Assembly: GCA_964406895.1 (NCBI GenBank)
Contig: CAYOTK010000005.1
Coordinates: 7,484-71,483, forward strand
Direction: 5' to 3'
DNA: 64,000 nucleotides
From: an uncultured Candidatus Saccharibacteria bacterium
GTDB lineage: Bacteria; Patescibacteriota; Minisyncoccia; Phycocordibacterales; PALSA-1337
In this document: positions 2,580 through 25,568 of the stretch, piece by piece
How positions within the stretch are numbered: position 1 is the first letter of the stretch
How the letters are laid out: every line of letters starts with the position of its first letter
The notes under the pieces: model-generated
What the model was told of the DNA's origin: nothing
The model's database searches: none
Seen by the model: the letters and a program-made list of their open reading frames with translations, nothing else
Position numbers and translations under genes: made by a program

Positions 2580-2660
2580 TTTAAGAAATCTTTAGGAAAA
2601 ATTTAATAAATCTTTAACACTGTTTTGATAATCTTCATTATTATTAGTAACAATAAAAAT

Positions 2661-4903: not shown

Positions 4904-4904
4904 A

Positions 4905-6806: not shown

Positions 6807-6810
6807 TGTT

Positions 6811-7911: not shown

Positions 7912-7912
7912 T

Positions 7913-8266: not shown

Positions 8267-8331
8267 TTTGTAATTACCTATATTTTACCTTTTATTTTGC
8301 TTTTGTTTTTGGCAAATCTGTGTATAACTTA

Positions 8332-8340
8332 TGATATAAT
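8332..8340 (+). promoter_or_regulatory. Possible extended -10 promoter element (TGaTATAAT) upstream of the GtrA-family gene
   Basis: TGATATAAT lies 13 nt upstream of the ATG at 8354. A TTGGCA upstream sits 20 nt away, so it is not counted as a -35. Confidence 0.25.
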
Positions 8341-8353
8341 TGTAGTTACAAAA

Positions 8354-9822: not shown

Positions 9823-9823
9823 C

Positions 9824-10867
9824 ATGAAAGTATTGTATTTGTTTAGTAATTACAGAAAAGATCATGTAGATAAGTTTCAAAAGGGACTAATAAGTGACAA
9901 TGCTTTTTTTGGTTTATTCAGACTAAAAAATTTCAATATTGAAACATCTTATTTTGAAATAGAGGATTTTTTACCAAAACGTTTGTGCTCTTTTTTAAGA
10001 AAATATGTCAGTGTTTACGTTATCAACTTATTTGCCTTTGCAAAAATAATTCGTACGGATTTTGTTATTCATGTTAATTCTTTTGTTACGCAAATGGTTT
10101 TTGTATTCCTGCCTTTTGTTAGTCCTAAATGGGTAATATATGATTATAGTTTAACCGGACTTTTGAAAAACAGTCGAAGTTATAAGCAGAAAATTTTGAA
10201 ATGGATAGTTTCGAAAAGTTCTGGAATAATAACTCTCTGTGAAGAAGAAAAAAGAAGACTTGAAAATATTTTTCCTCATTTGATAGGGAAGATTAAGTTT
10301 ATTCGTTACGGTGTAGATACCAAATTTTTTGAACCCCTAAAAGTGGAAGAAGAAGATTATGTCCTTTCGATAGGGCATGATATGGGGCGAGATTATCAGA
10401 CGTTATTTGAAGCAATGAAGGGTCTGAATACAAAATTGATAATAACAGATCAAAAAAGAGCAAAGAAAATGTCTGTAATTCCTGCTTTTGTTCAGGTGAA
10501 GAATTTTTCTGAACAAGAACTTAGAACGGCTTATGCAAGGGCCAAAGTTATAGTTATTCCACTCAACACATCTGGAGGTTTCAATGATGCTATGGGTTGT
10601 TCTACGCTCGTGGAGGCTTTCTCTATGGGCAAGCCTGTTATAATTACGAGAACTTTTACGACTGAATCTTATGTTGAAAATGGTGTAAATGCTTTGCTTG
10701 TAGGACAAGGAAATGTTTCTGAATTAAGAAGCAAGCTTGTATATTTATTGAATAATGACGAGATCAGGCGTAAATTAGGTACAGAGGCAAGGAGGTATGC
10801 GATAGAAAAATGTGAATCAAATCTGATAGCAAGAGATATGGCGCAGTTCTTCAAAAAAATGATATAG
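9824..10867 (+). CDS. Glycosyltransferase family 1 (GT4-like)
   Basis: …STLVEAFSMGKPVIITR…ENGVNALLV is a GT1/GT4 C-terminal motif. Confidence 0.55.
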   Translation: MKVLYLFSNYRKDHVDKFQKGLISDNAFFGLFRLKNFNIETSYFEIEDFLPKRLCSFLRKYVSVYVINLFAFAKIIRTDFVIHVNSFVTQMVFVFLPFVSPKWVIYDYSLTGLLKNSRSYKQKILKWIVSKSSGIITLCEEEKRRLENIFPHLIGKIKFIRYGVDTKFFEPLKVEEEDYVLSIGHDMGRDYQTLFEAMKGLNTKLIITDQKRAKKMSVIPAFVQVKNFSEQELRTAYARAKVIVIPLNTSGGFNDAMGCSTLVEAFSMGKPVIITRTFTTESYVENGVNALLVGQGNVSELRSKLVYLLNNDEIRRKLGTEARRYAIEKCESNLIARDMAQFFKKMI

Positions 10868-10878
10868 TTGAAACTATC

Positions 10879-11520
10879 ATGATTCAGTCATTGTTAAGAA
10901 TTGAAGAAACAAAAGCCTTGTCTCGACTTGAATTAAACGGGAAGATATTGGATTTGGGTGGTGAGAAAAATGCCTATTATCATAGAATAATACAGGGTAA
11001 ACATAATTTTTTTGTAGTAAATTTGGACATGAAGACTAAACCAGATCTTTTCTATGACCTAGAGAAAAATTTGCCTTTTAAGGAGGGTGAATATGAACAT
11101 GTTATTATCATGAATGTCTTGGAGCATGTTTATAATTTCAAGAAATTAATCGATGAATCATATAGAATTGTAGAAATAGGGGGGACAATTGTTGTTGTGG
11201 TCCCTTTCTTATTTCCATTTCACGCTTCACCTCGAGATTTTTTTCGCTATACTGAAACTTCTTTAAAACAAATATTAATAGATTCTGGATTCAAGGATAT
11301 AAATGTGAAGGCTCTTGGGTCGGGTATTTTCTCTATTTCTTTATTGTGTTTTGATAGATTGATGCCTTATCCGTTGCGTTTTATTAATTATTATGTGACT
11401 AGACACATCGTTTATTTTTTTGATTTTATTTTCGATAAAGCCGCTTATTTCATGCGGAAGAAATACAAAAAAACTGACTACGCTCTGGGTTATTTTGTTA
11501 CTGCAAAAAAAGTTTTATGA
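10879..11520 (+). CDS. Class I SAM-dependent methyltransferase
   Basis: ILDLGGEKNAYY is motif I and VIIMNVLEHV is the post-I motif. The fold is type 11/12-like. Confidence 0.5.
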   Translation: MIQSLLRIEETKALSRLELNGKILDLGGEKNAYYHRIIQGKHNFFVVNLDMKTKPDLFYDLEKNLPFKEGEYEHVIIMNVLEHVYNFKKLIDESYRIVEIGGTIVVVVPFLFPFHASPRDFFRYTETSLKQILIDSGFKDINVKALGSGIFSISLLCFDRLMPYPLRFINYYVTRHIVYFFDFIFDKAAYFMRKKYKKTDYALGYFVTAKKVL

Positions 11521-12362
11521 ATATCAAAAATATAGTAAAAAAAATTACACCCGCACCTATATGGAATTTTTTGCGTCACTACAAAGCTATAATTTTTGAT
11601 CGACTATCAAATTTTGGTCATAGTGTTTGCAGTATCAAATATTGTGGATTTGATTTGTTTTATTTGCCAGGAGATCTCTTGGTAAAAAAAATCAGAAACA
11701 ATAAAATTTTCGAACAAAAAATGTGCGACAAAATTGAAAAGGAACTTCACAGTTCAAATTCGAATACATTTATGGATATCGGATCAAATATTGGCCTCAT
11801 AAGTCTCTATGTTAGTTCCAAAATAAAAAATATTAGTATATATGCTTTTGAGCCAGGACCAAATCAAAGTAAAATGTTTGAGAAAACTATTTTAAAAAAT
11901 AATTTAAATTCAATTTCTCTCTATAAAATTGCACTAGGAAATGAAGACAAATCAGTAACATTTGTGAGTCATTATTCTCCTGATTCTTCGGGTGACGGTT
12001 TGGTGGATACAGGGAGGGCTGGTCAACCTATTCCTGTATCTGTTCCCATGATGAGATTGGATACTTGGTGGAAAAAAAATAATGAACCTCAGATTGACGT
12101 AATGAAAATTGATACCGAAGGTTCAGAGCTTCTTATCTTGCAAGGCGCTATGGTCATGATACAAAGTACAAAACCTATTATTTATATAGAAATTGAACCG
12201 AAAAATATCAAAGTTTATCCATATACCAGAGATGATTTGTTTCTTTGGTTTCAGTACAATAATTATTCTTTATACACTTTAGACAATGAATTATGTACCC
12301 ACACAAACTTTGCATCCTTTATTGGGAAATATGATACATATATTGCACGTCCAAAACTATGA
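11517..12362 (+). CDS. FkbM-family methyltransferase
   Basis: FMDIGSNIGLISLYV … IYAFEPGP … VMKIDTEGSELLIL is the FkbM-family pattern. Confidence 0.55.
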   Translation: MNIKNIVKKITPAPIWNFLRHYKAIIFDRLSNFGHSVCSIKYCGFDLFYLPGDLLVKKIRNNKIFEQKMCDKIEKELHSSNSNTFMDIGSNIGLISLYVSSKIKNISIYAFEPGPNQSKMFEKTILKNNLNSISLYKIALGNEDKSVTFVSHYSPDSSGDGLVDTGRAGQPIPVSVPMMRLDTWWKKNNEPQIDVMKIDTEGSELLILQGAMVMIQSTKPIIYIEIEPKNIKVYPYTRDDLFLWFQYNNYSLYTLDNELCTHTNFASFIGKYDTYIARPKL

Positions 12363-13459
12363 AATTAATACAAATAACAGCCAAGAAATTTCCTGCTAAT
12401 ACCGCGGATCATATTTTTTTAAAGAAATCTGTTTACGCTTTTTCTAAACTACTGAATAAAGATTATCAATTTATATGTTTGAATTGTTATGACAATTCAT
12501 TTGAAAACATAAATTATATAAATATTGGGTCAACTTGGACTAGGGGAATTACATTTTATTTGTTCCTTTGGGTTCCGTATTTTATATTCAAAAACAAAAT
12601 ATATAATCAAGAGATTTGGTTTTATAGTAATGATTTATATATTTTATCTATTTTGATTTTTTGGAAGAAATTGTTTTCCATGAAATTTTGTATTGCTTCA
12701 GAGTGGCATATGCTTATCTCTAATTACTTAGATGGATATGTATCTAGGAATAGTGATAAGCTGATCACAACTACAAAACACTTGAAAAATATATTAATAA
12801 AAAGTTTTAATATAGAAAGTTCTAAAGTGCAAGAAATATATGGTGGTGTAGAAATCGATCCTTTTCAAAACCTCCGTAATACAAATATTTCAGGTATGCA
12901 AGATAAGACGTTGATCAAATTGGGTTACATCGGATATTACAAGACAATGGGTATGGAGAAAGGTCTGTCTACAATCATTGAGAGTCTTAAATATCTAGAC
13001 AAAAAAATTCATGCATATCTCGTGGGGGGTCGTAAAGATGAGATAGAGGGATATAAAATTTTGGCAGGAAAGATTGGGGTTCTTGATCGTGTCGAATTTA
13101 TTCCCACCGTAGAACAAAGCGAAATTCCAAAATATTTTGAAAATATGGATATCGTAATAATTCCATATCCAAACAAGAAACATTTTAGAGATTATGGATT
13201 ACCAATGAAGATTTATGAATATATGGCCAGTAAAAAAATAATTGTTTATTCGAAATTGCCTGTCATTGATGAATTACTTCACGACTGCGCAGTATCTTTT
13301 GAACCCGATAATTCACAAGATTTGGCAAATAAGATTGCTCAAATAATAAATAATAGGGAAAATTTTGATGTGCTTGTTGATAGGGCTTACGCCAAGGTTT
13401 TGAATTATTCGTGGGATAAAAGATCCGAGAATATCGTTAGATTTTTAGGAAAGATTTGA
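12359..13459 (+). CDS. Glycosyltransferase family 1 (GT4-like)
   Basis: It has GT-B C-terminal features (…IPYPNKKHFRDYGLPMKIYEYMASKKIIVYSKLP…). Confidence 0.5.
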   Translation: MKLIQITAKKFPANTADHIFLKKSVYAFSKLLNKDYQFICLNCYDNSFENINYINIGSTWTRGITFYLFLWVPYFIFKNKIYNQEIWFYSNDLYILSILIFWKKLFSMKFCIASEWHMLISNYLDGYVSRNSDKLITTTKHLKNILIKSFNIESSKVQEIYGGVEIDPFQNLRNTNISGMQDKTLIKLGYIGYYKTMGMEKGLSTIIESLKYLDKKIHAYLVGGRKDEIEGYKILAGKIGVLDRVEFIPTVEQSEIPKYFENMDIVIIPYPNKKHFRDYGLPMKIYEYMASKKIIVYSKLPVIDELLHDCAVSFEPDNSQDLANKIAQIINNRENFDVLVDRAYAKVLNYSWDKRSENIVRFLGKI

Positions 13460-15194
13460 TGAATATTTTTGCAATATCTATATAAGATTTTTTGCTATAC
13501 TCACTAAATATTTTTGATTTGCGGAATATTTGTGCCGAGATTTTAATTCTATTTGCATTTAAGCCGCATATGTTATACCAGCGCATATATAATATTTTTT
13601 TAAGACTTTTTGAAGAATATATTTTGCATGAATCATTTTTTTTCATTATGATTTCTAGCCAGTTCTTATGTTCAACGAGAAATTGCTCTATGGCGATTTC
13701 AGAAGGACAAATTATTGAATTGTGAACAAACATGTCGGATTCTTGTGGTTGTAGACCCAATTTTTCCAATTGTCGCTTTCTTATTTCGTTTACGGTGCTT
13801 TTTTTGTTTGCTTTGTTTTGAATCATTAGATTCGATTCATGTAATCTGTAATACAACAAAACACGTCTTATATTCGTTATTTTTCCCAACTCTGATATTC
13901 TCGTCCAGAGGTCGTAATCTTCTTCGATATATTGGCTTCTATAAAAAAGGTTGTTTTCGATCAAGAATGATTTTCTTATTATTACTGTTGGATGTGCTAT
14001 GCTCGTATTGAATAACAATTGCGCCTTTATATCTTCGGGATTACTAAGCAATTTGCTTTTATATGATTTGCTGTGACCAATGGTTTTGTAAAATGTTCCT
14101 GATATTGATATGTCCTTGTTTTTTTCCATGAATTCATATTGTTTCTCGAATCTTTGTGGTAATGAAATATCATCAGAATCCATTCTTGCTATATAATCGC
14201 CCTGGGATAATAATATGCCTTGATTTAGAGATTCTGCTATGCCTTTTTTTGTTTCATTTAGGATATATTTGATTCTTGGATCATCGTATGAGTTGATAAT
14301 ATTTTTACATTCGTCTGAGTCACTTTTGTCTTCGATTATGATGAATTCAAAATTTTTGAAGGTCTGATCGAGTATGCTGTCGATAGCTTGTTTTAAGTAT
14401 TTGCCATTTTTATACACAGGCATAATAACACTGATTTTCGGATCATTTATTATCTTTTTCCATGATTTGGGTATTAGATCTTTTTCGTCACGCTGATCGA
14501 CGAACCAATTCATGGGGGAAATAACAATTTTGTTTGGGTTTGGATTGAGCCATGCCGCCCACCAACTATAAGTACTGTTTGCAATGATATTATGTTTACA
14601 TTGCGACATTAGATAGTGCTCTTCAGTATCAGAAAATCCTTTACCAGAGACATACTCGAAATTGTCATGAATGTGGGGTTGAATATTTTCTTTTACCCAA
14701 TTTACGTCATCAGTGAATATAAATATTTTTATTTGTTTACTTTCGAGTTTTCTTTTTATTGTGTTTATTGATTCTATATAATAACTAGGCGACAAATTAT
14801 CATAAATTATTTTATGTTTTGTGGTTGTATAATCTGTTCTTCGTACATGAATTGAAACCGAAAGGGAAGACTTGATATCTTTATAAATGGGATATTTGTC
14901 CCAGTCTGTTTTTTTTGGAGACAATTCTCTGCGTATTTTATCTGATATTTGATCGAAATATTTCTCGCTTTGCCAGTACCCTTCCGAAATATTTTTTTCA
15001 TTGGAAATATGGTCTTTGACTATTTTAGCTTCGATATTGTATTGATCCAATAAGAATTTTCGATCGCTATTTTCTTTATTGTAATAACTTATGTCAAGAA
15101 ATAATGACTCCTTTCTTTCAAGACTAAAATATCGACCATATGCATATTGGAACATTTGATTTCCAAGACCGCCTTGAATTTTGATTTTACTCAT
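13437..15194 (-). CDS. Bifunctional glycosyltransferase: N-terminal GT11 (alpha-1,2-fucosyltransferase-like) fused to a C-terminal GT2 domain
   Basis: The N-terminus MSKIKIQGGLGNQMFQYAYGRYFS matches the GT11/FutC family start motif (GGLGNQMFQYA). The C-terminal half has ISVIMPVYKNGKYLKQAIDSILDQTF…FEFIIIEDKSDSD, a GT2 DxD-type domain. Confidence 0.6.
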   Translation of the reverse strand: MSKIKIQGGLGNQMFQYAYGRYFSLERKESLFLDISYYNKENSDRKFLLDQYNIEAKIVKDHISNEKNISEGYWQSEKYFDQISDKIRRELSPKKTDWDKYPIYKDIKSSLSVSIHVRRTDYTTTKHKIIYDNLSPSYYIESINTIKRKLESKQIKIFIFTDDVNWVKENIQPHIHDNFEYVSGKGFSDTEEHYLMSQCKHNIIANSTYSWWAAWLNPNPNKIVISPMNWFVDQRDEKDLIPKSWKKIINDPKISVIMPVYKNGKYLKQAIDSILDQTFKNFEFIIIEDKSDSDECKNIINSYDDPRIKYILNETKKGIAESLNQGILLSQGDYIARMDSDDISLPQRFEKQYEFMEKNKDISISGTFYKTIGHSKSYKSKLLSNPEDIKAQLLFNTSIAHPTVIIRKSFLIENNLFYRSQYIEEDYDLWTRISELGKITNIRRVLLYYRLHESNLMIQNKANKKSTVNEIRKRQLEKLGLQPQESDMFVHNSIICPSEIAIEQFLVEHKNWLEIIMKKNDSCKIYSSKSLKKILYMRWYNICGLNANRIKISAQIFRKSKIFSEYSKKSYIDIAKIFIKSFLKI

Positions 15195-15701
15195 TTATCT
15201 TTTTCTTATGAATTTTGCGGGAGTTCCGGCATATATACTATATTCAGGAACATCTGATGTTACGACACTATTTGCGCCGATTACTGAACCATTACCAATC
15301 TTTACTCCGTCTGTAATAGTACAATTTGCACCAATCCATACATCATTTCCTATATGTATTGGTCCTTTAGAAATATCTGTAGCAAATCTCATGGGTTTTT
15401 CTTTTTGATTTAGATTGTGGTTACCTGAAGCAATCATGCAGTGAGGGGCAATCATAACATTATCTCCAATATGTACTCCGCTGCCACCATATATGACCGT
15501 GAATGGGTTTATTTGAGTGTTTTTTCCAATAATAACTGGATTTCTATACGTTCTGATTATTACATATTCTTGGATTTCCGCTTTTTCTTTTATTGTTATT
15601 AGTTTCTTAACTTCCAAAATGGCTGTTTTATCAACAGTATAGGGCTTTTGGGGGAACCAAAAAAATAAGTATTTTTTAATTATGTTTTTAATTCTGTTCA
15701 T
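15195..15701 (-). CDS. Hexapeptide-repeat (LbH) sugar O-acetyltransferase
   Basis: It has repeated [LIV]-G-x-x-x-x-I hexapeptides (IGDNVMIAPHCMIASGNH…IGNDVWIGANCTITDGVKIGNGSVIGANSVV). Confidence 0.6.
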   Translation of the reverse strand: MNRIKNIIKKYLFFWFPQKPYTVDKTAILEVKKLITIKEKAEIQEYVIIRTYRNPVIIGKNTQINPFTVIYGGSGVHIGDNVMIAPHCMIASGNHNLNQKEKPMRFATDISKGPIHIGNDVWIGANCTITDGVKIGNGSVIGANSVVTSDVPEYSIYAGTPAKFIRKR

Positions 15702-16494
15702 TGATCAAATCAAGTAATCCTTGTTCCAAACTTATTTTTGGATGCCAGCCTTTCGGTTTGCCTTTTATTGTTACGAAATTTCTATCTACACCTTTTTGGT
15801 TACCGGGAACGACTTTTGCTTTTGTGTGTTTTGCAATTATATGTGCCAACTCTAACATTGATGTCCATTCGAAGTTTGTAAGATCGTATATTTTGCCTGT
15901 CATATTATTCTCGAAAAGATGATGTAATGCTTCGGAGACATCTCTTACATGTGTGAATTGTCTTCTTTCATTTCCAGAAGTCATCATTTTGATTTTACCG
16001 GTTGTTTTGGCTTGGTGAATAAAATCTGCCACCACATGGCTCTTCTCGTCTATTTTTTCTGATGCGCCATATATATTCCAAAGTCTTACACATATACCTT
16101 GTAGCTCTAGCGTCCATAATTCTCCAGTTCTTTTGAGAGCACCATATATAGTATCTGTTTCATCGGCTAATTGACTTGATACGAATACAAATGGTTTTTT
16201 GTGTTTTTGTATTTGTGTCATTACGTTTCTGAGTAAGTCAATGTTCCAATTGAGTTGCAGTAGTTGAGTCTCTTTTTTATAAAGATACTTTGCTCCACCG
16301 ACTTCCCAAGCGAGGAAATAGACTCTGTCATACTTGTTAAGTTTTAGATCCGCGAAGCGGGCATCTTCTTTCTTGCCTCTTTTGATATCGAAATGGGTAA
16401 CCTCTTCACCTTTTTCTTTCAAAAATTTACAGAGTGGTTTGCCCAAGAATCCTTCCGAACCGATTACAAGATTTTTTATTTTTTTATTATTCAT
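15688..16494 (-). CDS. NAD-dependent epimerase/dehydratase family (short SDR-type nucleotide-sugar enzyme)
   Basis: The N-terminus has the Rossmann motif NLVIGSEGFLGKPL. It is ~268 aa and lies in the glycan locus. Confidence 0.5.
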   Translation of the reverse strand: MNNKKIKNLVIGSEGFLGKPLCKFLKEKGEEVTHFDIKRGKKEDARFADLKLNKYDRVYFLAWEVGGAKYLYKKETQLLQLNWNIDLLRNVMTQIQKHKKPFVFVSSQLADETDTIYGALKRTGELWTLELQGICVRLWNIYGASEKIDEKSHVVADFIHQAKTTGKIKMMTSGNERRQFTHVRDVSEALHHLFENNMTGKIYDLTNFEWTSMLELAHIIAKHTKAKVVPGNQKGVDRNFVTIKGKPKGWHPKISLEQGLLDLINEQN

Positions 16495-17575
16495 TTTGTT
16501 TGCTTAGGTTGAGAGCTTTAATAATTGGTAAACAGAAATTCTCGGGAAGAAATTTCTTGTATTTTTCACTTTTCATGAATCGTTCTGCAGCCTGTAGGTA
16601 TTCATCATATCTCTTTTCATCTACACTTATCAAGTAATCAGCCAGTTCTTTGTCTGAGTTGAATTTCCGTCTGTCAACAAAGGTGTCAGTGTCTATATAG
16701 TCTTCGATATTACATGCTCCCCAATATATAGGAACAGCTCTTGCATGAAATGAGGTGAATATTTTATCGCAAACATATCCGTGTGCGTCAGATGTGTTTT
16801 CGTAGCATAAATTGAATTTATATCGTGATAGAATATCAAATTTATTATCTGCAAATCCTCTGTATGTTTTGTATTTCTTTACTAGGAAAGGGAATAGCTT
16901 TTGCATTCTAGTGGCAGGTTTATTCCACCTTGCTCCATAAAAATCAAAATCATTCGGGTAATATTTATCAAAATAGTCATAAGCTTTTCTTCTTGCAGTA
17001 TAAAGTTCGTATTTATAGTTTGAATATTTGTTAATTGACGCGCTTACAAGTAATTTCTTTTCATTAAATGGGATCGGTTTTTCTAACATCTTGTTACCTT
17101 CCATGGGAACGTAGAATTGTGTGAATCTTTTATCACCAAGAAGACTATCATCCCATGTCACCATTTTATCGAATTTTGACCACGTCTCTTCCGTATAATT
17201 ATCTTTTAATACCGTCTTTGGTTCCCACACTATGAGCAATAGTTTGTCTCTAAGTCCTGCTTTTATTGCTTCAGAATAGAGATCTCTTGTAACATTGATT
17301 GGATTGATTTTCATGCCAAATAATTTGCGTAAGGAGTTTTCTATTCTTTTTGAAATAGAAAGTGGTTTGTATAGACTGTCTGCGTTGTGGAATATTATTC
17401 CTGCGCAATTTTCCAAAGAATGATTATCTGCTGTAGAAAATTCATACCCTAAATCCTCGATGTTTTTCTTGAGATAATGCCAACCAGCAGAAAGATTATT
17501 TCGATCCATTACATTGAATATCTGATTGTTCATGAAAGCTCGACTTGAAAACTGAATTAGAACTTTCTTTTTCAT
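16487..17575 (-). CDS. GT10-family glycosyltransferase (alpha-1,3/4-fucosyltransferase-like)
   Basis: YKFNLCYENTSDAHGYVCDKIF matches the GT10 C-terminal motif (F-x-L-x-FENS…YVTEK). Confidence 0.5.
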   Translation of the reverse strand: MKKKVLIQFSSRAFMNNQIFNVMDRNNLSAGWHYLKKNIEDLGYEFSTADNHSLENCAGIIFHNADSLYKPLSISKRIENSLRKLFGMKINPINVTRDLYSEAIKAGLRDKLLLIVWEPKTVLKDNYTEETWSKFDKMVTWDDSLLGDKRFTQFYVPMEGNKMLEKPIPFNEKKLLVSASINKYSNYKYELYTARRKAYDYFDKYYPNDFDFYGARWNKPATRMQKLFPFLVKKYKTYRGFADNKFDILSRYKFNLCYENTSDAHGYVCDKIFTSFHARAVPIYWGACNIEDYIDTDTFVDRRKFNSDKELADYLISVDEKRYDEYLQAAERFMKSEKYKKFLPENFCLPIIKALNLSKQNE

Positions 17576-17579
17576 ATTG

Positions 17580-18842
17580 TTATGAAATTTGTATTGTTTG
17601 ATAATTCGGTATGATACCCATTACGCCCGTAGTATTGTCACTAAATATCCGTGTTTTTGGATTATTCTCGTCAATAATTTTGAAACTAATATTGCTGACC
17701 TTGTCTATTATATTAATTCCAGGATTATCTATGAGTATGTCCATGTCATAGTTTCCCACGTTAAATGTAAAAGCTGGAATTGAAATGCTGGTTTTATAGT
17801 GGCCTTTTTTGAAGTTTTTTAGCGTCCCAGAATAATCACTTTCATAAGTGTGAAGTATTTCATTTCCATTGCTTGAGAACATGAAACAAAGGGTCGCTTT
17901 GTTTATGTCGTTTATTACTTCAAAATCAATATCGATTTTGAAGTCTTTATATATCGGTATATCAGTAGTTGATTCATTGTGACATAATATTTGTGCTTGC
18001 TTTATGTATGCGTCTTTTTTGTTATTGTTTTCAAATTTTATCAGGGGATTTGAGTTTTTATTTTCTAGATAGAATTCAACGACCTTATCTGTTTCTCCAT
18101 ACATTACAATTTGACCTTTTTCGAGGAGAATGGTTTTTTTGCACAATTTCTGGATTGCATTCATGTTGTGACTAACGAAGATTATTGTTCTTCCTTCTTG
18201 TTTTGTTACTTCCTGCATTTTTCCTATACATTTTTTCTGGAATTCCACGTCTCCAACAGCAAGAACTTCATCAACAATCAAAATGTCTGGTTCCATATGT
18301 GCTGCCACAGAGAAAGCAAGTCTTACATACATTCCAGATGAATAATATTTTACAGGTGTATCCAAGAATTGACTTATTCCTGCAAACTCTACAATTTCAT
18401 CGAATTTTTTTATTATCTGATTTTTATGCATACCAAGAATGGCGCCGTTCAGGAAGATATTTTCTCTTCCGGTTAATTCGGGATGAAATCCCGTGCCTAC
18501 TTCGAGCAAACTTCCCACTACACCATTAAGAACAACTTCTCCTGTTGTTGGCGGAGTGATTTGAGATAGGATTTTGAGAAGAGTAGATTTGCCTGCGCCG
18601 TTTTTACCGATTACACCTATTACTTCGCCACGTTTTATTTCTAGATTAATATTTTTGAGGGCCCAATATTCTTCGGTTTTATTCATGCCTGTAATATCTC
18701 TAGTTTTGTTTATTACGAAACGAAAGGGGTTTCTCAATACAGATGAAAAAACATCTCTAAGAGCTATGTAGCCACCTTTTTGGTGGGTAATATGATATTT
18801 TTTGCCTATATTTTTTATGCTTATGATTGGGTCGTTTTGCAT
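17580..18842 (-). CDS. Polysaccharide ABC exporter ATP-binding protein (Wzt/TagH-like) with extended C-terminal domain
   Basis: Walker A is GKNGAGKSTLLKIL, the ABC signature is YSSGMYVRLAFSVAA and Walker B is ILIVDEVLAVGD. About 170 extra C-terminal residues follow the NBD. Confidence 0.7.
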   Translation of the reverse strand: MQNDPIISIKNIGKKYHITHQKGGYIALRDVFSSVLRNPFRFVINKTRDITGMNKTEEYWALKNINLEIKRGEVIGVIGKNGAGKSTLLKILSQITPPTTGEVVLNGVVGSLLEVGTGFHPELTGRENIFLNGAILGMHKNQIIKKFDEIVEFAGISQFLDTPVKYYSSGMYVRLAFSVAAHMEPDILIVDEVLAVGDVEFQKKCIGKMQEVTKQEGRTIIFVSHNMNAIQKLCKKTILLEKGQIVMYGETDKVVEFYLENKNSNPLIKFENNNKKDAYIKQAQILCHNESTTDIPIYKDFKIDIDFEVINDINKATLCFMFSSNGNEILHTYESDYSGTLKNFKKGHYKTSISIPAFTFNVGNYDMDILIDNPGINIIDKVSNISFKIIDENNPKTRIFSDNTTGVMGIIPNYQTIQIS

Positions 18843-18851
18843 GATGATATA

Positions 18852-19883
18852 TTACATTCTTTTTGCCTTTTTGAATATGACCTCTTTCTGAACCACAAAA
18901 TTGACAATATACAATATTGTTTCTGAAATTATTTTAGAAATATTTACAGGTATGCCCATTTTCCTACTAAGGATATATATTAATCCTGAAGACAATGCAC
19001 CAGAGATAATAACCAAGGTTATGTATTTAACGAATGTGCCTTTTTTCTCGCTATCAACGAATACTTTCTTGCTTACTAGACTGTAATTCACAAAAAGTGA
19101 AACACATCTTGAAGCATATGTTGATATTAGAATATTATTAATTAGTGGATACACTAATATGAAGACTAGAAAATCAACCAAGGCTGATAATAATGAAGAA
19201 ATTGTATATCTGAAAATGACAAAATATATTTTGAGAGAGTCCAGTAGAGGATTGAAATGAGAGGAAGAATTATTGTCCTTATATATTGTTTCGATCGAAA
19301 TCTCTTTTATTTTGATATTATTCTTAGAACATTTGAGTAACATTTCTGTTTCGAATTCATAGCCATTATATGGTATGTCTAGAAAATGTTTTAGATGCGA
19401 TACTTGGAAACCTCTCAATCCTGATTGTGTGTCTGATATTTTGACTTTATATATATACCTGAATATGTTTCTGGTTAAGATATTTCCGATTTTGCTCCTG
19501 AATGGAACTTCTTTACCGAAAGTTCTAGAACCTAGAAAAAGAGAATTCTCATCTTCTTTCATATATTCAATGATTTTTTTAACGTCGTTTTCATGATGTT
19601 GACCATCAGCATCGGCGGTTATAATTTTGTTCACGTCAGGGAAATTGCTGAGGGCATATTTGAATCCTGTTTTTAGGGCTGCGCCCTTGCCTTTATTTAC
19701 TTCATGATTGACTACAAACACATTCTGAAATCTTCTTACGTGGTCAAACATTTTGTCGAAGTCATGACCACTACCATCATTGATTATAAGAACTGCTTCA
19801 TTAGAGATTTGTCTCAAACGAGACATGAATGTGATCATGTCTTCGCTTGGTTTGTATGCAGGAATAAGTATTAAAGATTTCAT
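18852..19883 (-). CDS. GT2 glycosyltransferase fused to a C-terminal GtrA-like membrane domain (polyprenol-phosphate sugar synthase / Ppm1-DPM1-like)
   Basis: The N-terminal GT2 fold has LILIPAYKPSEDMI…ADADGQHH (DxD). The C-terminus has ~4 TM helices. Confidence 0.55.
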   Translation of the reverse strand: MKSLILIPAYKPSEDMITFMSRLRQISNEAVLIINDGSGHDFDKMFDHVRRFQNVFVVNHEVNKGKGAALKTGFKYALSNFPDVNKIITADADGQHHENDVKKIIEYMKEDENSLFLGSRTFGKEVPFRSKIGNILTRNIFRYIYKVKISDTQSGLRGFQVSHLKHFLDIPYNGYEFETEMLLKCSKNNIKIKEISIETIYKDNNSSSHFNPLLDSLKIYFVIFRYTISSLLSALVDFLVFILVYPLINNILISTYASRCVSLFVNYSLVSKKVFVDSEKKGTFVKYITLVIISGALSSGLIYILSRKMGIPVNISKIISETILYIVNFVVQKEVIFKKAKRM

Positions 19884-21745
19884 TTGTTTTTCTCAATAAC
19901 TTTCACAAGAATAAATCCATCGATATCAAATATTTTTACATATTTTCCAGCTTTTATCTTGTCTTTAATATCGTTTATAATTATATCTTTACTGTAATTT
20001 GTGGCCAGAATGTATCCGATATTGTTAGTCTTCGAAACAACATCAAAATATTTTTCAAAATTATCTTTTGTTGTTGCGTGTTCTGGATTGAGTTCATATA
20101 GCCTGTCTTTGGTGTCTGGCAAGAAATGGAGTAGGGCAAAATTGCTATATATTTTTTTATCGTCGTTATTGTCTGCAAAATATGAACTTATATTAGTGCT
20201 TAATTCTTTGTTGGATATAGTCTTTTTTTCTATATTGTATTTATTGAGTATTTTGCTATTCAAAAAAGGTCCCGAAATAAAAATCAAAAGAGCTATTAGG
20301 AGAAATAGTGGCCACAATTTCATTCTATCGATAAATGTCGCAGTTTTTTCAGAATTGATTATTGCGTGTATTGCAAATGATAAAGATATGCCTAGTAGCA
20401 CTACTCCGAAAGTTAAATTCCTGGAATCATAGCTTAAGAAAAGACTCCAGTATAAAGTGATAATAATAGCTGGAAGGGCAAACAAAAGCCCTGACAACCT
20501 TTTTTTGAATAACAAATAGATCGTTGATATGAAATACAAGATGATGATAAGGTAAGATTTTTTTATTGTATATATGAGAGCGTTGAATATAATAACTGCA
20601 TTAGAATTACCGCCGGCATGAATCAGAGCGTTAATGGTGGGGAGAACAGATGTTTCTTCGCCAAGATATATGGTGAATTCTTTGTATATATAGTATGGTC
20701 CAACTAATATTAGAATAAGAGAAATATATATGAATGTATATTTTAGGATTTTAGTTTTTATTGATTCGGATCTATGCAGATATACTAATATTGCTAATGG
20801 ATATATAAGAGCAATAAATATTCCTGTTTGTTTGGTGAGCAGTGCTGCAATGACTGATAGTGCTCCAGCTAATATTGTGATTTTTTCTTGGTTTCCTGAA
20901 AGTTTTTCTGTAAATAGTCGATACAAGAAGATAAGAGGTACAAGAGAAAAGAAACTTACTGCCGTATCGGCATAACCTTCAGTTGCCATTATTTCATAGC
21001 CGTTCATCAGTCTCAGTAATATGAATATTGTAAAAACTGAGAGAATAAATGCTGAATTTCTCGTTTTTATTCCCATTGAAAAAAGCATTGTGGCCATGAA
21101 TAATGGAAAGAGTGGCATAATCGCTTTTGCCAAGAATTCGCCGCTTTGCCCTAGCAGAACATAGAAGACCGACCAATTCATCGGTAATAATTGAGGATAT
21201 TCCCACGTGTCTGTTGGTAAAGTGTTTGACGCCCATTGTGTGGCCCAACGATTCCAAGAAAATATTGCGTCCGATAGATTGAATAATGTTCCTACATTCG
21301 AAATTAATAAATACAATAAATACGTGATTGTAAGAATAGATAGTAATACTACTAACGATTGATACGTCCTGCTTTTTTCTTCAAATAAATAATTTTTTAT
21401 TTGGTTAAATTTGAATTTCAAACGCATCTGTAGATAATCAACTACAGAAAACATATTCATGTTGAATATTTTATATATCGTATTTTTTTCAATATAAAAC
21501 AGTAACAATAATTCAATTGAAATAATTATTAATAGAACGTTTTGCGTATATGTGTGAAATAGGGTAAGAGGAAAAATTATTAGACTGTTGAATATCATAC
21601 TGAAGATGAAAGAAAAAATTAATCTCTCATCCAATTTGTGCCCAATTATTTTTATTAAGAAATGTGATATGAGCCAACCAGGAAGCAATGTGACCTGAAC
21701 AAGACCAAGAATGGCAAATATAGAAAATAATAAATTGTGTTGCAT
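19880..21745 (-). CDS. Polytopic GT-C-type glycosyltransferase (PMT/ArnT-like, GT39/GT83-like)
   Basis: It is a 621-aa integral membrane protein with more than 10 TM helices and an extracytoplasmic C-terminal domain. It is start-overlapped with the Ppm-like gene. Assignment is by architecture, not by motif. Confidence 0.4.
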   Translation of the reverse strand: MQHNLLFSIFAILGLVQVTLLPGWLISHFLIKIIGHKLDERLIFSFIFSMIFNSLIIFPLTLFHTYTQNVLLIIISIELLLLFYIEKNTIYKIFNMNMFSVVDYLQMRLKFKFNQIKNYLFEEKSRTYQSLVVLLSILTITYLLYLLISNVGTLFNLSDAIFSWNRWATQWASNTLPTDTWEYPQLLPMNWSVFYVLLGQSGEFLAKAIMPLFPLFMATMLFSMGIKTRNSAFILSVFTIFILLRLMNGYEIMATEGYADTAVSFFSLVPLIFLYRLFTEKLSGNQEKITILAGALSVIAALLTKQTGIFIALIYPLAILVYLHRSESIKTKILKYTFIYISLILILVGPYYIYKEFTIYLGEETSVLPTINALIHAGGNSNAVIIFNALIYTIKKSYLIIILYFISTIYLLFKKRLSGLLFALPAIIITLYWSLFLSYDSRNLTFGVVLLGISLSFAIHAIINSEKTATFIDRMKLWPLFLLIALLIFISGPFLNSKILNKYNIEKKTISNKELSTNISSYFADNNDDKKIYSNFALLHFLPDTKDRLYELNPEHATTKDNFEKYFDVVSKTNNIGYILATNYSKDIIINDIKDKIKAGKYVKIFDIDGFILVKVIEKNK

Positions 21746-21752
21746 GTTTTTA

Positions 21753-22574
21753 CTAAACTATATCAGCAAAATATCTTTCTACTTTCTTGAATAGATATAT
21801 ACCAATAAGCATTAGTACAAAACATGAGACAAATGAAATGCCGATAAGATTCCAATTTATTGCTGTAGTGCCGAGCAGAGCAGCGCGTGCGCTTTGTATT
21901 GCTCCCGTCATCGGATTCAAGGCGAGAATCCAAGAATACTTGTGTGCAATGCTTGCTGGATATATAACTGGAGTGACGAAAAGTAGCATTTGAATGAAGA
22001 ATGGTAATACGTACCTGACGTCACGGTATTTGACGTTTATGGCAGAAAGTATCAATCCTAGACCAACAGATGCCATGAATGAAATAGCGATTACAAGAGG
22101 AATAACTAATAGACTCTCGATTTTCGGTGTGAAGCCATAATATATCATCATTACAACCAGTATTGATGCTGAGATAATAAAATCTACAAGCTTTGTGGTA
22201 ACTGAAGATAATGGCAATATGAGCCTAGGGAAATATACTTTTGTGATGATAGATTGGTTGGTGATAAGACAATTACTAATATCAACTAATGCCGTAGAGA
22301 AAAATTGCCAGAATAATAAGCCAGCATAAACAAATATAGGATATGGAACATTATCAGATGGTACATGTATTAGATTGCTGAAGAATATAGTGAACACAAA
22401 CATTGTTATGAAGGGTTGAAATATAGCCCACAAGACACCGATTAATGTTTGTTTGTATCGCACCTTAAGATCTCTCCAGGTGAAGAAATACAATAATTCT
22501 TTGAACTGCCATAATTCTTTCAGGTCTGAAAAATGAAATATCTTTTTGGGCCTGATAACTATTGTTTGATTTGA
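21753..22574 (-). CDS. ABC-2 type polysaccharide exporter permease (Wzm-like)
   Basis: It has ~6 TM helices and the ABC-2 pattern. The internal Met (MSNQTIVIRPKK) was chosen so it does not overlap the upstream methyltransferase. Confidence 0.6.
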   Translation of the reverse strand, partial: SNQTIVIRPKKIFHFSDLKELWQFKELLYFFTWRDLKVRYKQTLIGVLWAIFQPFITMFVFTIFFSNLIHVPSDNVPYPIFVYAGLLFWQFFSTALVDISNCLITNQSIITKVYFPRLILPLSSVTTKLVDFIISASILVVMMIYYGFTPKIESLLVIPLVIAISFMASVGLGLILSAINVKYRDVRYVLPFFIQMLLFVTPVIYPASIAHKYSWILALNPMTGAIQSARAALLGTTAINWNLIGISFVSCFVLMLIGIYLFKKVERYFADIV

Positions 22575-22587
22575 CATAAAATCTATA

Positions 22588-23229
22588 CTAACACGGTTTT
22601 GAACAGATAAAAACAAGGTCAAAAGAGAACATTCCTGGCATGAATTTGTCAAAATACGCGAATCTTCCGAGCGGCTCTATTGTCACTTCTTTGAAATATT
22701 TGTGAAGGACTTGTTTGAGCTCTTTGTGGCTGAAGTGGTTTATGTGTGTTGGGTCATGAAGGGGAGTTTTGTCTTTTTTTCCTAAGAATAATCTTATGCG
22801 ATTTATCAAGCTAAAAGCATTTGGTACAGATCCTATAAGCATTCCTTCTTTATTAAGTACAGATTTTATTTTTTGAATGACTTTTTCAGGATAATATATG
22901 TGTTCTAGTGTCTCAGCAATTACTACGACATCATACTTATTTTGAGAAATCTGCTCCCACTCGCCATTTATATCGAAGTGTAAAGGTTTTATACCTCTCT
23001 TGCTTGCTTTATCAAGTGCGATGGTATCTATGTCGGCACCAGTTACATCGTTATTTTTTACGAAGAATGATGTGAGAGCGCCGTCTCTACATCCAAGATC
23101 AAGTATTTTTTTACCAGTTCCAATATTCTTGGCAAATAATCTACCTCTGTCTTCCTTCAATATGCTGAAACCTTCTCCTCTACAATTGTTATTATGAAAT
23201 TCGTATATGTTTTGTCCTGATTTATTCAT
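22588..23229 (-). CDS. Class I SAM-dependent methyltransferase
   Basis: ILDLGCRDGALTSFF is motif I and VVVIAETLEHIYYP follows it. Confidence 0.5.
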   Translation of the reverse strand: MNKSGQNIYEFHNNNCRGEGFSILKEDRGRLFAKNIGTGKKILDLGCRDGALTSFFVKNNDVTGADIDTIALDKASKRGIKPLHFDINGEWEQISQNKYDVVVIAETLEHIYYPEKVIQKIKSVLNKEGMLIGSVPNAFSLINRIRLFLGKKDKTPLHDPTHINHFSHKELKQVLHKYFKEVTIEPLGRFAYFDKFMPGMFSFDLVFICSKPC

Positions 23230-23333
23230 GCCACAATATTATCATATAATTAACTTTGAGTTTATGTTTGTGTATACCCCCTTGGATTTTGTATATACAT
23301 AATATATACTGAAAAATCATAATTAATAAAAAC

Positions 23334-25568
23334 ATGAATTTAAAAACAATAGTTCGTAGTATTTCAATAAGTGCAATATTCCTCATCCCATTCTTCGCAA
23401 TCTTGGCTCCAAGTGGGGCAGCTCACCCAATATTTCCGTCGAACCTTATAAACGACTTATTCTTTCCATTTATCACAGGGAAAGCCTTTTATTTCAGGAT
23501 TTTGACTGAAATTGCTTTTGCTGGATGGATTATTTTGGCCTTTTTGGATCCAAAATACAGACCTAAATGCACACCTGTATCCATAACCATTACTATTTTT
23601 GCCTTTGTTGTTTTGTTATCAGACCTATTGGGCGTCAATCCTATAAGAAGCATGTGGTCAAACTTCGAACGTATGGAAGGTTGGGTTACCATCATACACC
23701 TATGGGCTTTGTTTATGGCAATGGTCAACGTATTTGGCACAGGAGAATCTGGTCGAAGGATGTGGCAACGATATATGAATACACATCTAGTTGTCGCTGG
23801 TATCGTAGCTATTTACGCTTTTGTACAGCTTTTGGGTGGCGCTCAAATTCACCAAGGTTCTCGTATCGACGCTTCTCTCGGAAACGCGGCTTACCTAGCT
23901 GTCTACATGCTTTTCCAGACTTTCATTTCAGCTTATATGTTCTTTGTAGCAAAAAACAAGAAAATATCAGGATCAGAAATACTGGTTTGGGTTTACGGCA
24001 TATCGTTCTTTGTGTTTGGTTATTTGCTTGTTGAAACAGCAACAAGAGGTACTATACTTGGTCTTATTGGTGGAGTTTTGCTCGCCCTCGCCCTTTATGC
24101 AATATTCGGTGGGAAGAAGAAAGAAGACAAAAAGTGGCGTTGGATTTCATTAGGAATTATTGTGTTTATCATGGTTGTAGGCATTTTATTCTGGGTCAAT
24201 AGAGATGCAAAATTCATACAGAATCACGAAGCACTTCGTCGTATGGCATCGATATCAATTTCCGAGAATAAAACTCAAGCTCGTGCATATATCTGGCCAG
24301 CAGCTGTGAAGGGGGCAATGGAAAGACCGCTATTTGGTTGGGGCCAAGATAATTTCAATTATATTTTCAACTCCAACTACAACCCAAAGATGTGGGCTCA
24401 AGAGCAATGGTTCGATAGGGCGCACAGCGTATTTCTCGATTGGTTGGTTTCTTCGGGTCTAGTTGGCATAATCGTATATTTGGCATTGTATGTAATGGCC
24501 ATTATTGTTATTTGGAAATCGACGTTTTCTGTTGCAGAAAAAAGCACTCTCACGGGTTTGATTGTGGGCTATGCAATACACAATATATTCGTGTTCGACA
24601 ACCTCGCTAGTTACATTTTATTCTTTAGTTTCCTCGGCTTTGTTTCTTCGAATTATCAGAATGGCAAAGATACGAATACAAAAGGTCTACGAGAATTCAA
24701 AAATGAAACCGTTGAATATGTTGTGGCTCCGCTTGTTCTCGTGCTTCTTATAGTCACTATATATATGGTCAATGTGAGAGTTATTCAGGCCAACACTACT
24801 CTTATCAAGGCTCTTGTTACATGTCAGTCGGGTAAAACAGATTCTACTCCGGTCTTCGAGAAGGCATTGAGTTATGATATGTATGTAGCAAATCAAGAAA
24901 TACGTGAACAACTCATAACATGTGCACAAAATACCATACTTTCGAATGCTACTTCTGGTCCTATGAAACAGTCTATATTCTTGCTTACTGATGCTCAGAT
25001 TCAGAAACAAATCGAAGCTACTCCGAAAGATGCGAGAATATACAACTTGGCAGGTAATCTTATGAATTCAATCCAGAATGGCGAAAAGGCTCTAGAATAT
25101 CTGAAAATTGCAAATGAACTATTCCCGAATAAGCCTGCTATTTTGATCAGTTTGGCGGAGGCTTATTTGAGGACCAATAACAAAGATAAGGCAATCGAAA
25201 CTATCAAGGCCGCTTATGAACTGTCGACGGACAATTACAATGCGAGAGATGCTTATGCGCGTGCTCTGGTAATTATGGGTAGAGAAAAGGAAGCAATAGA
25301 TAGATTCAAGGCCAATCCAGAAATATTCGATACACAAGGCTTTGCTCAGTTGTATGTTTCGCTTAAACAATACGACAAAGCAATTGATATTGCGAAGAAA
25401 CTCATAAATAGCGATCCTAAGAAAATAGAATACAAGGTCATGCTTGCCGATATACAAAATGCCGCTGGGTATAAATGGGAAGCTGTGCAGACACTAAAAG
25501 GCATAGCTAATGATTTCCCTGAATACAAGACTCAAGTAGATCAAGCGATCAAACAGATTCAGAAATAG
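23334..25568 (+). CDS. Wzy_C (O-antigen ligase-like) polytopic membrane protein with C-terminal TPR repeats, putative O-oligosaccharyltransferase/ligase
   Basis: It has ~12 TM helices and the Wzy_C-like loop …GWGQDNFNYIF…AHSVFLDWLVSSGLVG. The C-terminal 250 aa carry TPR-like repeats (…EALKYLKIANELFPNKPAILISLAEAYLRTNNKDKAIE…). Confidence 0.55.
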   Translation: MNLKTIVRSISISAIFLIPFFAILAPSGAAHPIFPSNLINDLFFPFITGKAFYFRILTEIAFAGWIILAFLDPKYRPKCTPVSITITIFAFVVLLSDLLGVNPIRSMWSNFERMEGWVTIIHLWALFMAMVNVFGTGESGRRMWQRYMNTHLVVAGIVAIYAFVQLLGGAQIHQGSRIDASLGNAAYLAVYMLFQTFISAYMFFVAKNKKISGSEILVWVYGISFFVFGYLLVETATRGTILGLIGGVLLALALYAIFGGKKKEDKKWRWISLGIIVFIMVVGILFWVNRDAKFIQNHEALRRMASISISENKTQARAYIWPAAVKGAMERPLFGWGQDNFNYIFNSNYNPKMWAQEQWFDRAHSVFLDWLVSSGLVGIIVYLALYVMAIIVIWKSTFSVAEKSTLTGLIVGYAIHNIFVFDNLASYILFFSFLGFVSSNYQNGKDTNTKGLREFKNETVEYVVAPLVLVLLIVTIYMVNVRVIQANTTLIKALVTCQSGKTDSTPVFEKALSYDMYVANQEIREQLITCAQNTILSNATSGPMKQSIFLLTDAQIQKQIEATPKDARIYNLAGNLMNSIQNGEKALEYLKIANELFPNKPAILISLAEAYLRTNNKDKAIETIKAAYELSTDNYNARDAYARALVIMGREKEAIDRFKANPEIFDTQGFAQLYVSLKQYDKAIDIAKKLINSDPKKIEYKVMLADIQNAAGYKWEAVQTLKGIANDFPEYKTQVDQAIKQIQK

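Follow-up and report, generated by a model that had tools for sequence, protein, structure and literature searches.

What is built by the products of positions 17580-25568 of the DNA analysed here, and to what is it attached? The window, a stretch of 64,000 nucleotides from an uncultured Candidatus Saccharibacteria bacterium (contig CAYOTK010000005.1, positions 7,484 to 71,483), encodes in this region a Wzm/Wzt exporter, a fusion of a glycosyltransferase (GT) of the GT2 family with a GtrA domain, a polytopic protein of 621 aa and a Wzy_C protein with a TPR tail, which a first-pass annotation had read as machinery for protein O-glycosylation. Our results suggest that this region combines the late-stage genes of a surface-glycan island of the O-antigen type (approximately 4.1-23.2 kb) with the conserved ligase served by that island, a reading to which we give a probability of roughly 0.55.

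All six open reading frames (ORFs) listed in the first-pass annotation were present at their coordinates in the ORF list, and five of them bear the expected Pfam domains, the 621-aa ORF bearing none. Note that the glycan locus is far bigger than the range first delimited: it extends over ~4142-25568, about 21 kb, and that range is only its right-hand third. The features of this third are the following:

17580-18842, minus strand: Wzt, the ATP-binding subunit of the exporter, 420 aa (ABC_tran, E 6.4e-22).
18852-19883, minus strand: GT2-GtrA fusion (Glycos_transf_2, E 4e-16; GtrA_DPMS_TM, E 3.8e-12).
19880-21745, minus strand: polytopic 621-aa protein with a predicted GT-C fold, without a Pfam match.
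21753-22652 (longest ORF), minus strand: Wzm, the ABC-2 permease (ABC2_membrane, PF01061, E 1e-18).
22588-23229, minus strand: S-adenosylmethionine-dependent methyltransferase (Methyltransf_23, E 5.5e-19).
23230-23333: AT-rich divergent intergenic region of 104 bp that separates the glycan operon from the ligase gene, read directly from the sequence.
23334-25568, plus strand: Wzy_C-TPR ligase, 744 aa (Wzy_C, PF04932, E 2.7e-21, and several TPR models).

The source-named homologues of the window proteins are labelled Candidatus Paceibacterota, Parcubacteria or Patescibacteria, and these labels therefore support the initial assumption that the organism resembles those of the Candidate Phyla Radiation (CPR).

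A polysaccharide ABC exporter of the Wzm/Wzt type is present, as first annotated. The permease is accompanied by a Wzt-type nucleotide-binding domain (NBD), whose best solved relative is the A. aeolicus Wzt (8dku, E 1.6e-69), with TagH/TarH at E 1e-54; NCBIfam models for TagH and for the mycobacterial galactan Wzt were matched too, and Wzm matched the galactan Wzm/RfbD model at 6.4e-23, under the equivalog cutoff. With its TTG start codon, the longest Wzm ORF shares 65 nt with the methyltransferase gene upstream. On the identical public contig, Wzm is called from an internal ATG (274 aa, ~21753-22577), which removes the overlap and is probably the true start.

The Wzt NBD occupies residues ~57-260 and is followed by a C-terminal extension, as had been noted, although this measures ~160 aa (residues ~261-420) and not ~170 aa. 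The suggestion that the extension is a recognition domain survived as a probable one. In a related lineage (L002), the orthologous tail matched Pfam Wzt_C at E 1.3e-4 (22 bits, below the gathering score of 30.4). Moreover, a four-sequence tail profile aligned its residues 22-120 with residues 3-100 of the carbohydrate-binding domain (CBD) of the A. aeolicus Wzt (8dky, 6o14) at E 0.27-0.41, and hhalign placed the tail in register, with a probability of 23%, with a small Wzt C-domain alignment made of that CBD and two Paceibacterota tails that match Wzt_C. Among other Paceibacterota Wzt proteins encoded beside the same ligase, Wzt_C was above threshold in lineage L007 and weak in L092; a homologue search using the C-domain alone found nothing. 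By these weak but concordant signals the tail is probably a diverged carbohydrate-binding, cap-recognising domain. The A. aeolicus Wzt C-domain binds a 3-O-methyl-mannose/rhamnose cap (PMC9445017), and by analogy with this protein and with E. coli O8/O9a the window Wzt may recognise a cap as well, a logic with which the methyltransferases of the locus would be consistent.

The product of 23334-25568 is a Wzy_C protein (76.4 bits, gathering score 31.7). Its homologues number more than 2800; the best 120 are full length at ~50-55% identity, and those with a named source are labelled Patescibacteria. The membrane domain has no sequence-level match in the PDB. An AlphaFold2 (AF2) model built from 51 sequences had a predicted local distance difference test (pLDDT) score of 85, and Foldseek matched its membrane part to WaaL (7tpg_B, E 3.3e-5, TM-score 0.64) and its tail to OGT-like TPR superhelices, suggesting a WaaL-type fold. 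Using the helix layout of the model and the positive-inside rule, we predict twelve WaaL-like helices with a large outside loop (289-362), then a cytoplasmic linker bearing lysine and arginine (442-456), a thirteenth helix (~457-481) and a TPR domain of ~240 residues. The thirteenth transmembrane helix places the TPR domain outside the membrane, on the same side as the catalytic loop, so this domain is predicted to be extracytoplasmic.

Residues R238, R303, R317, H364, G375, G378, C497 and C530 are invariant in the 51 ligase homologues, and the protein carries the motif H-S-x9-G-x-x-G. We take H[NSQ]x9GxxG to be the motif of such ligases, and the invariant residues agree with it. R215, R288 and H338 are conserved in E. 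coli WaaL, and R224, R298 and H349 in PglL (PMC3643930); by position and spacing, R238/R303/R317/H364 fit this Arg/Arg/His pattern. C497 and C530 lie just after the thirteenth helix, and a disulfide bond joining the two would agree with a TPR domain outside the membrane, as predicted. The protein was also considered as a Wzy polymerase, a role that we rejected, as loci of the ABC type, where a polymerase is not needed, have the protein beside them in an equally conserved form.

The most informative finding concerns the genomic context of the ligase in the relatives. Downstream of the ligase, murB and then secA are found in eight of nine lineages, mostly followed by the NUDIX, AI-2E transporter and obg genes, and in the window the order to the right of the ligase is murB, secA, NUDIX gene, AI-2E transporter gene, obg and gatB. 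Upstream, glycan genes stand immediately beside the ligase and divergent from it in all nine contexts, the divergent arrangement of ligase and glycan operon being seen in L002, L003, L005, L007, L008 and L092. The content of these upstream loci is variable. In the window, L002, L003 and L005 it is a cassette with wzm, the gene for the 621-aa protein, the GT2-GtrA gene and wzt; in L007 it is Wzm/Wzt (with Wzt_C), a sulfotransferase, APS kinase and FkbM methyltransferases; in L006, a PMT_2 protein, GT2 and epimerases; and in the place labelled P0062, Wzx, an asparagine synthase homologue and GT2. L008 has a Wzx flippase with GT2, GT17 and GT11, and L092 has Wzm/Wzt with GT2, GT17 and GT11 very similar to those of L008 and a backbone like that of L008. 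The two loci (L008:8606-9988 and L092:7764-9892, with GT2 proteins of 538 and 539 aa) differ in having Wzx or Wzm/Wzt beside the ligase, as though one export route had replaced the other inside an otherwise similar glycan locus. Since one conserved ligase stands beside differing glycan genes and export routes, it would have to tolerate many donors, and a conserved acceptor is presumed.

Which acceptor would this be? Ser/Thr residues of surface proteins are the most likely one, at close to even odds, with a glycolipid or the cell wall next. To our knowledge, no CPR bacterium makes lipopolysaccharide (LPS) or the lipid A-core. This is one of the reasons why a protein acceptor for the polymer is plausible; the others are the predicted outside location of the TPR domain, the presence of candidates nearby, which are a type IV pilin (2625-3143, N_methyl) and two giant surface proteins, and a precedent. 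The latter is WsfB of P. alvei, a Wzy_C protein with C-terminal TPR and a predicted O-oligosaccharyltransferase, which belongs to a pathway that depends on an ABC exporter and has a methyl cap (PMC2943079).

The strongest alternative, which we hold to be possible although clearly less likely than the reading proposed here, is that the ligase transfers its glycan to a non-protein acceptor, either a membrane glycolipid anchor (a lipoglycan, LPS-like) or the cell wall, in which case the system would make a lipoglycan or a secondary polymer of the cell wall instead of glycosylating proteins. WaaL, the one structural relative of the ligase that has been solved, has a glycolipid acceptor; murB is its neighbour in the lineages counted above; and ABC-exported polymers of monoderms, such as the group A carbohydrate (GAC) and the rhamnose-rich cell wall polysaccharides, are usually linked to the wall. 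Moreover, the PglL-specific PF15864 (PglL_A) was absent from the Pfam matches of the ligase at E <= 0.01. The motif of this family separates PglL from WaaL, and PilO is without it (PMC3643930). As PilO lacks it too, sequence alone cannot decide the acceptor of the ligase, and the initial statement that the protein resembles PglL more than WaaL was not supported: the PglL_A match was not found and the two classes are not separable in this way. What speaks for a protein partner, and so against this alternative, is the TPR domain, for which the Wzy_C-TPR protein WsfB is the precedent (PMC2943079). The want of any lipid A-core pathway known from CPR bacteria also argues against a glycolipid. As for the wall, its linkage to polymers in monoderms is normally the work of LCP enzymes and not of Wzy_C proteins.

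Returning to the island and its ligase, we analysed the 621-aa protein, for which no sequence match was obtained in Pfam, NCBIfam or the PDB. Word-indexed search found only ten relatives, and an exhaustive profile search found 1903 cluster representatives (clusters at 50% identity), 831 of them at E <= 1e-30. Thus, the protein belongs to a large family that is not modelled in current domain libraries. The AF2 model, built from the alignment, had a pLDDT of 76.9, and its best Foldseek matches in the PDB were the ArnT structures 5ezm and 5f15 (probability 1.0, TM-score 0.44-0.49 over ~570 columns; E 2e-3 for 5ezm), followed by Pmt1/Pmt2, Pmt4, ALG3 and AftD. As all the top structural matches are GT-C enzymes, the earlier call of a GT-C fold holds for the modelled structure. 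Membership of the PMT (GT39) or ArnT (GT83) families was rejected: no sequence model matches, and the likeness is at the level of the fold. In fact, neither PF02366 (PMT) nor PF13231 (PMT_2) nor PF16192 (PMT_4TMC) was matched by the window protein even at E <= 10. Fragments are labelled 'ArnT-like' by JGI.

Thirty diverse members of the family share the invariant residues N53, E78, D159, A168, Y183, Q185, Y195, K305, W433, Y439, R442 and N443, with D159 inside a WDAxxSWNRWA motif and K305 inside TKQxG. The loop that bears D159 (149-203) is poor in lysine and arginine and is preceded by a loop rich in them; D159 would thus stand in the first large extracytoplasmic loop, at the position expected for the catalytic acid of a GT-C enzyme, and the protein is predicted to move a lipid-phosphate-linked sugar outside the membrane. 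With ArnT and PMT it would share the GT-C fold, the acidic residue in the first large outside loop and a polyprenol-phosphate-sugar donor made by a neighbouring GT2. It differs from them in falling into neither family's sequence models, in its N-terminal extension of ~125 aa with three transmembrane helices, and in its small C-terminal alpha/beta domain without MIR domains. Among the GTDB genomes, most matches to the family come from Chloroflexota; it is also present in Bacteroidota, Syntrophomonadaceae, Desulfobacterota, Gammaproteobacteria, Dependentiae, Verrucomicrobia, Spirochaetota, Actinomycetota and others, and some of its members carry TPR additions. The 621-aa protein thus represents a broadly distributed GT-C family for which the domain libraries have at present no model.

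The partner of this protein is the GT2-GtrA fusion, whose catalytic domain belongs to PF00535 and whose four C-terminal helices form a GtrA/DPMS domain (PF04138). The GT2 domain matched NCBIfam PpgS at 2.2e-25 and AglJ at 4.5e-24, both under the equivalog cutoffs, and the best solved relatives, at weak E-values, are the P. furiosus DPMS (5mlz), ArnC and GtrB. From these matches the fusion is predicted to be a polyprenol-phosphate-sugar synthase with a GtrA-type, flippase-like domain of four transmembrane helices. The start-overlap reported for the two genes was confirmed: the stop of the 621-aa gene and the start of the GT2-GtrA gene share an ATGA, an arrangement of translational coupling. In this way the Gtr-type components (GtrA-like, GtrB-like and GT-C) are encoded together, as a fusion and a coupled GT-C gene.

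Does this pair belong to the exporter or to something else? Outside Paceibacterota, we surveyed 79 loci that carry a member of the GT-C family. In about a third of them (26/79) the immediate neighbour of the GT-C gene is a full-length GT2-GtrA homologue; a GT2-only neighbour was found in 12 and a GtrA-only neighbour in 6, and contig ends cut another 12. This recurrent adjacency across phyla makes the pair a portable two-gene cassette, which occurs in many phyla, diderms included. Within 6 kb of the GT-C gene no Wzm, Wzy_C-TPR or GT10 homologue was present in any of the 79 loci, and it is only in Paceibacterota that Wzm and Wzt flank it. There, four lineages (the window, L002, L003 and L005) preserve the gene order wzm, GT-C, GT2-GtrA, wzt, with identities of 34-92% over the whole core and of 34-57% between the other GT-C proteins and that of the window. 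A GT10-like gene adjoins wzt in the window, L003/L004 and L005 (59-87% identity in L003 and L005). L002, for its part, has a PF00852 gene two genes further downstream, with a match that is weak and only partial (E 1e-5).

The nesting of the pair between wzm and wzt, together with the precedents of Gtr, GacI/GacL and WsfH/WsfD, leads us to consider that addition of a side-chain sugar to the exported polymer is more likely than protein mannosylation. In the Gtr systems of phages and Shigella (GtrA-GtrB-GtrC) and in GacI/GacJ/GacK/GacL, as here, a GT2 polyprenol-phosphate-sugar synthase, a flippase and a polytopic GT-C are combined. These systems decorate a polymer after its export, and in the group A carbohydrate locus the side-chain genes stand beside the genes of the ABC exporter of that polymer (bioRxiv 10.1101/180810). 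They differ from the window in that the synthase and GtrA are here fused, with an architecture like that of the P. furiosus DPMS, and in that the window GT-C comes from another family, one without a Pfam or NCBIfam model. In P. alvei, the branching sugar is provided by a separate lipid-carrier route with the polyprenol-phosphate-glucose synthase WsfH and a second transferase, WsfD (PMC2943079).

The first-pass annotation had proposed instead a classic Ppm plus PMT pair for protein O-mannosylation, and as an explanation this we now regard as improbable. In such a scheme the pair would add single sugars directly onto Ser/Thr of secreted proteins, either independently of the ABC-exported polymer or priming the proteins for it. 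The fold and the PMTs among the structural matches agree with this, and the closest sequence in the PDB to the family profile is the yeast Pmt2, at E 0.033; one of the 30 diverse members matches PF02366, at 5e-5; and both the TPR additions of some members and the S/T-rich tails of the neighbouring giant proteins could be cited in its favour. However, the window protein itself matched neither PMT nor PMT_2 at the permissive threshold given above, and the better and only full-length structural match is ArnT, whose acceptor is a lipid. The NCBIfam neighbours of the synthase are PpgS, which serves arabinogalactan decoration, and AglJ. Finally, Paceibacterota have separate proteins, encoded in other loci, that do match PMT or PMT_2, and the pair studied here is nested between wzm and wzt in four Paceibacterota lineages.

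The preferred reading, an exchangeable island served by a conserved ligase, was then set against the divergence of the backbone. The SecA proteins of L006-L008 are 69-73% identical to that of the window, as near as L002, yet these lineages are without the cassette. The most distant genome, L003 (SecA 64%, ligase 32%), does have it, with Wzm at 67%, Wzt at 58% and GT10 at 59%. The cassette is thus patchy relative to the backbone, the pattern of an exchangeable, O-antigen-like island beside a conserved ligase. The L003 ligase (L003:4841-7150) has 32% identity to that of the window, and the L003 cassette proteins other than GT-C have 50-67%; this could reflect either quicker evolution of the ligase in that lineage or transfer of the cassette between distant lineages. 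The same figures, and the fact that the ligase travels with murB-secA-obg and not with any one set of glycan genes, could also mean that it is a functionally separate housekeeping gene of the backbone that merely borders an integration hotspot, the polymer being released as capsule or exopolysaccharide or attached by another enzyme; this we consider the least likely of the alternatives, because divergent glycan genes lie just upstream in all nine contexts, a lipid-linked exported glycan needs a transferase for which the loci offer no other candidate, and a conserved ligase with a variable donor locus is the logic of WaaL/O-antigen and of PglL.

For the mechanism and ALTERNATIVES, a four-step model is the best supported. 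In the first step, a polyprenol-diphosphate-linked glycan would be built on the cytoplasmic face by the soluble GT4, GT11-GT2 and GT10-like transferases and would be O-methylated and acetylated; here the domain content is observed and the chemistry is deduced from it. Next, the C-terminal domain of Wzt would recognise the finished and probably capped chain, and Wzm-Wzt would export it. Meanwhile, the fusion protein GT2-GtrA would make and flip a polyprenol-phosphate-monosaccharide, from which the novel GT-C enzyme, acting outside the membrane, would supply the polymer with a side-chain sugar once it has been exported. For this third step the fold and the gene coupling were established as described, and the polymer is the presumed acceptor on account of the wzm/wzt nesting and the precedents. 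Finally, the Wzy_C-TPR enzyme would take the glycan off its lipid carrier and pass it en bloc to the acceptor. We propose this transfer from the modelled fold, from the Arg/Arg/His residues that do not vary among the homologues and from the TPR domain, which is predicted to be extracytoplasmic.

Several results weigh against this model and against the reading as a whole. Taken alone, the window Wzt tail did not match Pfam Wzt_C (PF14524) even at E <= 10 and gave only chance-level matches against PDB chains, so that its assignment as a CBD stands on signals below threshold. No initiating phosphoglycosyltransferase of the WecA/WbaP type (PF00953, PF02397) was found among the scanned ORFs of the window, and the lipid-diphosphate linkage of the polymer is therefore an assumption, a gap that all the models considered here share; this gene, as well as an S-layer gene, which was not among the scanned ORFs either, may be elsewhere in the genome. 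The missing PglL_A match of the ligase counts on the same side. In the P0062 place the backbone downstream of the ligase differs from that of the other lineages, and the adjacency of ligase and island could be merely positional, the ligase being part of the conserved backbone. Lastly, the acceptors proposed for the GT-C enzyme and for the ligase are both candidates only.

How does this system compare with those already known? The closest is S-layer glycan (slg) biosynthesis in Geobacillus and Paenibacillus, as described for G. stearothermophilus NRS 2004/3a and P. alvei CCM 2051T (PMC2943079): in common are a monoderm-type cell, a lipid-linked glycan, modules of the O-antigen kind, export by Wzm/Wzt, where the slg Wzt is predicted to bind a 2-O-methyl cap, and a Wzy_C O-oligosaccharyltransferase, WsaB or WsfB, of which WsfB has the C-terminal TPR motif. 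The scanned window ORFs differ in lacking an S-layer gene and an initiating enzyme of the WsaP/WsfP type; the branching cassette of the window is a GT2-GtrA fusion with a GT-C that has no Pfam model, placed between wzm and wzt; and its ligase is conserved at a fixed position over a phylum-level group while the glycan genes are swapped. With cap-dependent ABC export (the E. coli O8/O9a Wzt and the A. aeolicus WzmWzt, PMC9445017) the window shares Wzm, a Wzt with a C-terminal domain after the NBD, and methyltransferases in the locus, the A. aeolicus protein being the closest solved relative. It differs in that its C-domain is too diverged for the Pfam Wzt_C threshold, no WbdD-like terminator was recognised in the locus and the organism is not expected to have LPS. 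As to the Wzy_C superfamily (WaaL/PglL), the window ligase agrees with it in the Wzy_C domain, the predicted WaaL-like fold of twelve transmembrane helices, the large outside loop, the Arg/Arg/His residues and, by implication, the tolerance of many donor glycans. It differs in the thirteenth helix, the outside TPR domain of ~240 aa, the lack of PglL_A (PF15864) and its source, CPR bacteria in which it keeps ~50% identity.

Thus every component is of a known kind, and the logic is that of the Firmicute S-layer glycan pathways and of O-antigen/WaaL genetics. In the searchable literature we found no account of a group-wide, position-fixed Wzy_C-TPR ligase of Paceibacterota beside a variable glycan island, nor of a Gtr-like cassette inserted inside wzm-wzt, nor of the GT-C family. 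The cell surfaces of CPR/Patescibacteria are almost unstudied, though these organisms live attached to other cells. The conserved ligase (~50% identity, in thousands of genomes) beside a variable locus offers a simple marker of 'serotype' variation, and is a concrete enzyme for trial in E. coli glyco-engineering strains. If its acceptor is protein, it would represent O-glycosylation on a phylum scale outside the well-studied Proteobacteria, Bacteroidota and Firmicutes; if it is lipid or wall, this would be an ordinary secondary-polymer pathway in a new host.

A broader proposal, which we advance tentatively and consider doubtful as a whole, is that surface glycosylation of this kind is group-wide in Paceibacterota, with one Wzy_C-TPR O-oligosaccharyltransferase fixed beside murB-secA that puts the glycans of serotype-like, horizontally swapped islands onto surface proteins, for example pilins or giant adhesins. 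Were this true, the swaps would include the change between Wzx and ABC export routes, glycan diversity would be a main determinant of host attachment and of phage specificity in these episymbionts, and a new family of GT-C enzymes that decorate glycans, spread over many phyla, would have the 621-aa protein as its founding member.

The rest of the island, to the left of wzt, consists of the following:

16487-17575, minus strand: GT10-like glycosyltransferase (Glyco_transf_10 C-terminal domain, E 2.9e-13), directly downstream of wzt.
8297-16494: assembly and modification genes, predicted cytoplasmic by their Pfam matches, with a stand-alone GtrA, three GT4, two methyltransferases (one FkbM), a GT11-GT2 fusion, a hexapeptide acetyltransferase and an NAD-dependent epimerase/reductase.
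4142-8266, minus strand: mannose-related genes identified with Pfam at the far edge of the island, whose membership of the system is uncertain: a HAD-type phosphomannomutase, two GH130 genes and a cupin mannose-6-phosphate isomerase domain.

The glycan locus has three methyltransferases (10879-11520, the FkbM type at 11517-12362, and 22588-23229), and not four as first counted, the fourth (60688-61206) having unrelated surroundings; the FkbM type was correctly noted. That at 22588-23229 is the first gene of the leftward operon, is 82% identical to its L005 counterpart and is a candidate sugar O-methyltransferase. The stand-alone GtrA-family gene (8297-8788, plus strand) heads a rightward operon of GT4 and methyltransferase genes, has no neighbouring GT2 synthase or GT-C partner, and may encode a flippase for a different lipid-linked intermediate. 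The GH130 pair (4905-7911, minus strand), one member of which has 633 aa with an additional N-terminal part, is flanked by the phosphomannomutase gene (4142-4903) and that of the 117-aa cupin domain (7913-8266). Both proteins matched the NCBIfam beta-1,2-mannobiose phosphorylase under its cutoff (2.6e-123 and 5e-64). Their role may be catabolic, or they may run in the opposite direction as mannosyl-phosphate-dependent synthases.

Beyond the far left edge of the island, 78-3143 (plus strand) encodes a fragment of a type II/IV secretion platform protein (T2SSF), a membrane-anchored protein of 499 aa, a protein of 143 aa and the pilin, of 172 aa with the N-methylation motif; between these genes and the island there is only a D-Ala-D-Ala carboxypeptidase gene. 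PglL genes often adjoin pilin genes (PMC3643930), and the window ligase lies ~20 kb from this one. The giant proteins are encoded on the plus strand at 34415-42589 (2724 aa, FG-GAP repeats and an endosialidase-chaperone domain, Peptidase_S74, with no obvious signal peptide) and at 42630-48875 (2081 aa, beta-helix, cadherin-like and peptidoglycan-binding domains). The C-terminal stretches of both are rich in Ser/Thr. In L006 and L007, too, gatB and a MerR gene are followed at this position by a giant gene.

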